A stretch of 19,209 nucleotides of DNA. It comes from a virus (lineage: Duplodnaviria > Heunggongvirae > Uroviricota > Caudoviricetes). Below the pieces are notes generated by a model. The model searched no databases. It was not told the origin of the DNA and saw only the letters and a program-made list of their open reading frames with translations. Location of the stretch: positions 1-19,209 of the IMG/VR virus record IMGVR_UViG_2684622670_000013, one strand, 5' to 3'. Positions 2,567-3,067 of the stretch are shown piece after piece (positions within the stretch are counted from its first letter, which is position 1; every line of letters begins with the position of its first letter). The translations under genes were made by a program, and so were the position numbers.

Positions 2567-3067
2567 ATGGAAGTTACAAGTAATTTATCCGATGTTTTCC
2601 ACTATGACCCACTCACAGGGATTTTGAAGTGGAAGAAGGACACTGGTAAGAAAAGAATGGTTGGTAAGATTGCGGGCCGGCCAGATAGCAAAGGATATCT
2701 AGTTGTCGGGTGTTTTAACAAAGACCTCCGAGTGCATCGAATTGCATGGGAAATCTCTCATGGAAAAATCCCAGATGGTGTGCAAGTTGACCATATCAAT
2801 GGCATCAAAAGTGACAATAGGCTGTCCAACCTCAGGCTTGTTTCTCACCAGGACAACCAACGCAATATGGCCATCCCAAAATCCAATAATAGTGGGTTTA
2901 TGGGAGTCAGTTGGGATGCCAAGAATGGGAAATGGCGAGCAAAAATAATGGTAAACAGGAAAACGGTTCATCTGGGTCGATTCTCCTCCATTGAATTAGC
3001 AGCCAAAGCAAGAAAGGATGCAGAAATACGTTACGGGTTCCATGAGAATCACGGGCGTACGCCATGA
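2567..3067 (+). CDS. HNH homing endonuclease with C-terminal AP2-type DNA-binding domain
   Basis: Translation contains the HNH_3-type motif (HRIAWEISHGKIPDGVQVDHINGIKSDNRLSNLRLVSHQDNQRN) followed by an AP2-like segment (SGFMGVSWDAKNGKWRAKIMVNRKTVHLGRFSSIELAAKA). I prefer the ATG at 2567 (GGAGGG 8 nt upstream) over the ORF-track start at 2534. The gene is locally AT-rich compared with its neighbours. Confidence 0.85.
   Translation: MEVTSNLSDVFHYDPLTGILKWKKDTGKKRMVGKIAGRPDSKGYLVVGCFNKDLRVHRIAWEISHGKIPDGVQVDHINGIKSDNRLSNLRLVSHQDNQRNMAIPKSNNSGFMGVSWDAKNGKWRAKIMVNRKTVHLGRFSSIELAAKARKDAEIRYGFHENHGRTP

Follow-up and report, generated by a model that had tools for sequence, protein, structure and literature searches.

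The Locus and Its Prophage Setting

The window, i.e., the whole stretch of 19,209 nucleotides analyzed here, covers a late prophage region made up of neck, tail, baseplate and fibre genes. On its plus strand, at 2567..3067, lies a gene coding for a protein with a predicted HNH nuclease domain and a predicted AP2 DNA-binding domain (hereafter the HNH-AP2 gene). Read directly, its open reading frame starts with ATG at 2567, ends with TGA at 3065-3067 and specifies 166 amino acids plus the stop, exactly as delimited in the first-pass annotation. It is preceded by a gene coding for an E217 gp28-like collar or head-completion protein (2188..2562, plus strand; Pfam PF22755, 3.8e-5; PHROG 1912 'head protein', 4e-50) and followed by a neck/tail terminator gene (3064..3579, plus strand; Pfam PF23961, 7e-23). 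The initial description placed it between tail morphogenesis genes; both neighbours are late genes as proposed, but they belong to the neck and not strictly to the tail. Further upstream lies a Neck1/tail-completion gene (1767-2213, PHROG 222), while the sheath gene (3576-5066, DUF3383), the E217 gp32-like tube gene (5078-5512) and the tail assembly chaperone gene follow the terminator gene in that order.

The host of the HNH-AP2 gene is a GF-2-like (Gofduovirus-like) temperate myovirus prophage. The nearest isolated phages are the Edwardsiella phages Edno5 and GF-2 (genus Gofduovirus), whose sheath proteins share 73-75% amino acid identity with that of the window. The left edge of the window is occupied by an IS66-family element (1-1587) that codes for a transposase (31-1557; Pfam DDE_Tnp_IS66, 1e-102) and whose terminal repeat, ...GAGCCGCTTAC, ends at 1587. 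Phage homology restarts at 1588, equivalent to nt 253 in the 432-nt DUF4054 gene of Escherichia coli KCJ3K291. Since the element breaks this E217 gp27-like (DUF4054) head-completion gene, upstream of the HNH-AP2 gene, the prophage is probably defective and its copy of the endonuclease stranded.

In its Neck1 gene (1767-2187), the window is only about 60% identical to the alleles of KCJ3K291 and TW10590 and 73% to that of EcE.CRE.COL; from 2172 on, identity reaches 98-99%, which places an abrupt mosaic boundary some 400 nt before the HNH-AP2 gene. Nucleotide similarity to the E. coli relatives ends at 6212, early in a gene coding for a 591-aa tape-measure-like protein (6131-7906) that has no Pfam match and whose counterpart in relatives is annotated as an SLT-domain protein. 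This gene is followed by a low-GC (38%) block that contains two minus-strand ORFs (7915-8373 and 8745-9161) and codes for a protein with a P22 antirepressor N-terminal domain (10381-11067). Positions 6213-11067 have the look of accessory or moron DNA inserted where the tail genes give way to the baseplate genes. At the right edge, beside the tail-fibre genes, a tyrosine integrase gene with Arm-DNA-binding, SAM-like and catalytic domains (18052-19209, minus strand) runs off the end of the window. No tRNA gene was found in the window.

Domain Architecture of the HNH-AP2 Protein

The nuclease half corresponds to an HNH_3 core of the I-HmuI-like beta-beta-alpha-metal type (2729..2863, plus strand; aa 55-99), to which Pfam, alignment, profile and Foldseek results all point. 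The Pfam HNH_3 model (PF13392) matches at 74.5 bits against a cut-off of 24.8 (E 5e-21, profile positions 2-46 of 46). The candidate catalytic residues comprise D75-H76, N84, N88, N97 and N100, and all six, together with R90, are invariant in an alignment of 51 homologues. The AP2 domain (2891..3034, plus strand; aa 109-156) is predicted to consist of three beta strands and a helix. As a single sequence it scores 30.7 bits against PF00847 (E 3.8e-7, aa 109-148), narrowly below the Pfam gathering score of 33.3, and close homologues of the protein have precomputed PF00847 hits. The whole protein matches PHROG 99 'HNH endonuclease' at 3e-71.

The single sequence matched nothing in a search of the PDB; matches came only with a profile built from the alignment of the 51 homologues. 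This profile recognized I-HmuI (1e-9), with the aligned motif 'vDHkdGnkdnNlstNLRwVtqkiNveNq', as well as the AP2 domains of WRI1 (3.2e-9), TEM1 (3.6e-6) and ERF1 (8e-3). The AlphaFold model of the protein (pLDDT 90.9, pTM 0.74) has strands at 114-117, 122-129 and 132-139 and a helix at 142-156 according to DSSP. I-HmuI (1u3e) was its top Foldseek match in the PDB (E 1.7e-4, probability 1.00), and the next matches were AP2 domains, those of TEM1, WRI1 and AtERF1, with TM-scores on the target of up to 0.71 (TEM1 and AtERF1). Taken together, the Pfam, PHROG, alignment, profile, AlphaFold and Foldseek results show that both domains, as first proposed, are real and that the predicted catalytic residues are intact.

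Anatomy of the Insertion and Expression Signals

Junction alignments with the endonuclease-free alleles L002 and L003 delimit an inserted segment of 511 nt (2551..3061, plus strand) that takes the place of AGC, for a net gain of 508 nt. The empty junction is CAGGTA-AGC-CCATGAATG, reading ...CAG GTA AGC CCA TGA ATG..., and the occupied junction of the window is CAGGTA-(TCGGAGGG...GTACG)-CCATGAATG. Directly after CAGGTA, the left end of the insert reads TCGGAGGGATAA; the empty allele L003, from E. coli TW10590 (NZ_CP035850, about 2770950-2771110), contains ...GCTGTATTGCAGGTAAGCCCATGAATGATTTC.... The insertion thus breaks up a conserved TTGCAGGTR...CCATGA junction, in which the collar stop and the terminator start overlap as ATGA in 76 of 76 empty loci. 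It also changes the C-terminus of the collar protein from ...VSP* in the empty alleles to ...VSEG* in the window. The HNH-AP2 gene ends with the original CCA TGA and has therefore inherited the translational overlap with the terminator gene, whose ATG overlaps its stop codon (ATGA).

A Shine-Dalgarno sequence, GGAGGG (2553..2558, plus strand; sequence reading), lies 8 nt before the ATG, within the codons that now end the collar gene, and accounts for the strong ribosome-binding site reported in the first-pass annotation. It is kept in the occupied loci L001, L009, L010 and L034, and reads GGGGGG in L004. Between 1500 and 3700 on the plus strand, no promoter or terminator proper to the HNH-AP2 gene was detected, the counts not exceeding those expected from shuffled sequence; its expression evidently depends on the late operon transcript. 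A hairpin sequestering the ribosome-binding site, as used by some T4 endonuclease genes, was rejected, as shuffled sequences fold just as well as 2515-2600 does (z = +0.79). A group I intron or other RNA element was likewise rejected, Rfam giving no match in 2000-3700 at E<=1. The collar ORF (ending at 2562) and the terminator ORF (starting at 3064) are complete, and the gene is free-standing, interrupting them with neither intron nor intein, in line with the intron-less insertion initially proposed.

The composition of the gene had been described as locally AT-rich. Its GC content (44.5%) is indeed lower than that of its two neighbours (48.3% and 49.2%), but it equals the window mean (44.9%) and falls within the range of the other phage genes (36-50%), and is not diagnostic. 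Base composition thus failed as a check: GC, GC3 and synonymous codon usage resemble those of other phage genes in the window, and a foreign composition was rejected.

Presence and Absence among Related Prophages

Using window positions 1600-5100 as a megablast query, a related prophage was found in 20 of 5,426 complete E. coli genomes, only one of which, strain KCJ3K291, carries the HNH-AP2 gene, at the same junction. A search in distant mode with the insert alone returned this same copy and no other from the 5,426 genomes, hence no sign of copies in other contexts. Relatives were also sampled independently of the endonuclease with the terminator protein as query, which yielded 9 GTDB species representatives and 69 IMG/VR contigs. 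Among the 77 classifiable loci of these 78, the junction is occupied in one (L034) and empty in 76; it is also empty in the isolated phages GF-2 and Edno5. The junction is therefore polymorphic exactly where this had been predicted, and about 95-99% of related phages lack the HNH-AP2 gene.

A protein search covering 5.8 billion proteins recovered four close clusters, with 92, 85, 73 and 67% amino acid identity to the window protein; the next homologues, at about 50%, belong to unrelated phages. All four clusters are found at the collar/terminator junction, in GF-2-like prophages that are increasingly distant from that of the window, one of them in Edwardsiella piscicida. Occupied alleles can be paired with closely related empty ones: the window with L003 (98.5% nucleotide identity in collar and 99.2% in terminator), L034 with L039 (94.8 and 97.6%), L005 with L071 (98.8 and 97.6%), and L004 with GF-2 (left flank, 99.2% over 1,982 nt; right flank, 92.7% over 3,139 nt). 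Presence/absence polymorphism at this exact junction thus occurs in four separate phage sub-lineages.

The last pair, formed by the E. piscicida prophage L004 and phage GF-2 (locus L090), displays a step in similarity located at the endonuclease. Nuclease genes tend to mark the boundaries of genetic exchange (PMC10448857), with which this step agrees.

Other HNH-AP2 genes, 36-47% identical to that of the window, are found in related prophages at three other neck-tail junctions: between neck1 and collar (L044, 495-986, and L079, 1681-2136, plus strand), between terminator and sheath on the opposite strand (L011/L047, 3503-3012, minus strand), and between sheath and tube, also on the opposite strand (L052, 5009-4515; L067, 5016-4510; L087, 5003-4515; minus strand). 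The neck-tail module of the GF-2-like phage family is a hotspot for the HNH-AP2 endonuclease family.

The Recoded End of the Collar Gene

Next to the insertion, the collar gene is recoded at its 3' end (2526..2550, plus strand; window compared with L003). Eight differences fall within the 19 nt at 2526-2544, vs. five in the other 338 nt of the gene, and on the right of the insertion the first difference appears only at 3183. The eight substitutions abut the insertion on its left; all are synonymous except one, which replaces A by V. Moreover, L009 shares 98% identity with the window over the 45 nt at 2522-2566, compared to 85% over the rest of the collar gene; the recoded tract therefore travels with the endonuclease gene. 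Similar recoding distinguishes L004 from GF-2 and L005 from L071, and the left half of the junction is recoded in all occupied alleles.

Judging from these alignments, the tract is probably a co-conversion tract, the mutated left half of the homing site, or both. The empty alleles L049 and L059 naturally carry codons like those of the recoded collar tail, which may then be a plain co-conversion tract instead of selected immunity. A simple rule for the homing site, by which every empty allele would carry TTGCAGGT and every occupied one a changed version of it, fails to hold cleanly: TTGCAG is present in 55 of the 76 empty alleles, and CTTCAG, as in the occupied allele of the window, in four of them. 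For this reason we claim no defined target.

Divergence, Selection and Age of the Insertion

From one phage lineage to another, the HNH-AP2 gene has diverged less than its flanks. Between the window and L009, nucleotide identity is 91% in the HNH-AP2 gene, 85% in collar, 83% in terminator and 77% in sheath; between L009 and L034, the corresponding values are 99.2, 87, 96.7 and 92.6%. Synonymous divergence follows the same trend, with dS values of 0.35 (HNH-AP2), 1.03 (collar) and 1.07 (terminator) for the first pair, within an overall flank range of 1.0-1.2, and of 0.019, 0.62 and 0.11 for the second. The gene is full length in every copy, and its omega of 0.05-0.10 places it under purifying selection. 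Because the gene is both more conserved than its flanks and under purifying selection, this pattern indicates the lateral spread of a likely functional gene, as would be expected of an active mobile gene returning to one specific site. The idea of a selfish mobile insertion is thus supported by these comparisons. A vertically inherited gene of the structural module does not fit this pattern, and neither does a decaying remnant.

The event was initially described as recent. This holds relative to the empty alleles, from which the flanks diverge by 1-2% (dS about 0.02-0.04), but not relative to KCJ3K291: the HNH-AP2 copies of the window and KCJ3K291 (dS 0.049) diverged like their flanks (0.018-0.041), and the insertion is therefore older than the split of both prophages. 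With a dS of 0.35 between their HNH-AP2 genes and that of the window, neither L009 nor L034 is the direct donor. An unsampled donor is possible, and so is a gene that was present ancestrally and later removed by recombination with empty alleles. Gain and loss are not strictly separable in the window lineage, which could equally have carried the gene ancestrally before such losses.

A Probable Free-Standing Homing Endonuclease and Its Proposed Mechanism

Considering the sequence evidence as a whole, we regard 2567..3067 as a functional free-standing HNH-AP2 homing endonuclease gene lodged in the collar/neck-terminator junction of a GF-2-like temperate myovirus prophage, with a probability of roughly 85%. 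The gene would be transcribed with the late structural operon and translated from its own strong ribosome-binding site. Should an endonuclease-free relative be present in the same cell, either as a co-infecting phage or because a phage meets a resident prophage, the AP2 domain would bind the intact collar/terminator junction of this relative, and the I-HmuI-like HNH domain would nick or cut nearby. Recombinational repair from the carrier genome would then copy in the gene along with about 25-45 nt of the donor collar 3' end. Two changes would shield the occupied allele from cleavage, namely the splitting of the site by the insertion and the recoding of its left half. The domains with their intact catalytic residues, the exact insertion point, the polymorphism in four sub-lineages, the higher conservation of the gene compared to its flanks, the purifying selection and the linked substitutions are observed directly; that the enzyme cleaves, where it does so, that the occupied allele is immune and whether the window lineage gained or lost the gene are our inferences.

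Alternative Functions

A domesticated accessory nuclease would have lost homing and been kept because it helps the phage, spreading mainly by ordinary recombination; its possible roles include the degradation or exclusion of relatives free of the homing endonuclease gene (HEG), through marker exclusion or inter-phage competition, or another DNA transaction. The strong purifying selection (omega 0.05-0.10) would also be expected of a domesticated, useful gene, the association of the gene with a single junction is old, extending to phages with no more than 60-70% identity, and homing and domestication are inseparable by bioinformatics (PMC10448857). We nevertheless consider domestication improbable, at around one chance in ten. 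However, about 95-99% of related phages do without the gene, which is thus not required for their life cycle. Its higher conservation compared to the flanks and the recoding of the flank exactly at the insertion point are both predicted by homing, and the exclusion of HEG-free competitors would in any case simply follow from homing, with no need of a separate mechanism.

The protein could alternatively act as an AP2-based DNA-binding regulator, either a CasPR-like transcriptional silencer or an Aca-like protein, in which the HNH domain would be vestigial. Phage AP2 domains can indeed be sequence-specific transcriptional silencers; however, CasPRs combine AP2 with CapR, not with HNH (bioRxiv 10.64898/2026.02.23.707548). 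The invariance of D75, H76, N84, N88, N97 and N100 across the 51 homologues and the confidently predicted nuclease fold are hardly compatible with a vestigial HNH domain, and the gene lies outside any acr or regulatory locus, making such a role very unlikely. Least probable of all is a packaging-associated HNH nuclease of the HK97 gp74 type assisting terminase in cos cleavage: although HNH proteins are widespread in phage packaging machines (PMC10448857) and the gene sits within the late operon, it lies between collar and terminator genes and not beside terminase or portal, its AP2 domain and I-HmuI-like HNN-type chemistry depart from the small gp74 architecture, and its absence from 19 of 20 E. 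coli relatives, 76 of 77 other loci and the viable isolates GF-2 and Edno5 effectively refutes a packaging role, which we rejected on position and dispensability.

Relation to Known Systems

Homing by a free-standing endonuclease, the reading that we favor, has well-known precedents. The SegA-G and MobA-E endonucleases of T4 are free-standing and spread by intronless homing, with co-conversion of flanking polymorphisms. As a functional analogy, the gene of the window resembles them by its insertion between conserved genes, its variation among relatives and the apparently co-converted polymorphisms of its flank. The proteins themselves differ, as Seg enzymes are GIY-YIG nucleases and Mob enzymes combine HNH with a zinc finger, whereas the window protein has AP2. 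For the nuclease half, the best structural and profile match is I-HmuI, the HNH nicking endonuclease of Bacillus phage SPO1 (1u3e), and both share a D-H...N...N metal site devoid of Zn-binding cysteines. Unlike the free-standing window gene with its AP2 domain, I-HmuI is intron-encoded and its C-terminal DNA-binding region is of the helix-turn-helix type; identity between the two is about 21%. The other half resembles plant AP2/ERF domains (AtERF1, 1gcc; TEM1, 7et4; WRI1, 7wq5) in its three-stranded sheet and helix, with about 30% identity over some 55 residues, but the plant proteins are transcription factors lacking a nuclease domain.

The closest described systems are the phage HNH-AP2 (HNN-AP2) copies of PHROG 99, found in Rtp (gp40), T1-like phages (Tunavirinae), group I of the Xanthomonas phages Xp10/OP1/Xop411, and ICP1 ('IPA-HNH'). 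Like the gene of the window, these copies combine an N-terminal HNH_3 with a C-terminal AP2 domain in about 160-170 aa, are free-standing between essential genes and have a sporadic distribution; the best phage copies share 45-50% amino acid identity with the window protein. By tblastn, the family was detected in 3,858 phage records, frequently with more than one member in a genome, and no member exceeds about 50% identity. The window lineage differs in that no isolated phage record holds a relative above 50% identity to its protein, that it is confined to one junction of GF-2-like temperate Enterobacterales prophages, and that most described copies reside in virulent phages. According to PMC10448857 (citing Magnani et al. 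2004), proteins with an N-terminal HNH and a C-terminal AP2 domain are a recognized homing endonuclease family of phages, cyanobacteria and protists. Free-standing 'HNN-AP2' genes with gain and decay have also been described in Xanthomonas phages (PMC2248197).

Significance

The HNH-AP2 gene belongs to an already known endonuclease family and reveals no new principle; the value of the case lies mainly in annotation, with little beyond. It nonetheless provides a clean and bounded example in temperate prophages, with an exact empty site, a linked recoding tract and several independent occupied/empty pairs, so that the homing site lends itself readily to in vitro tests. It also adds to the evidence for nuclease genes at recombination boundaries in phage structural modules (PMC10448857).

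A broader scenario can be put forward tentatively, with the odds somewhat against it. One HNH-AP2 lineage would have tracked a single ATGA-overlapped collar/terminator site of 20-30 bp across a family of temperate Enterobacterales myoviruses, always accompanied by a recoded collar 3' end acting as a built-in immunity patch, and would mark a boundary of genetic exchange, as between L004 and GF-2 (99.2% on the left, 92.7% on the right). With three further HNH-AP2 lineages at neighbouring junctions, the neck-tail module would constitute a natural system for homing-driven mosaicism. If this scenario is true, one could study there how the mosaics of temperate phages are driven by homing endonucleases, also when the homing takes place between a resident prophage and a superinfecting phage.
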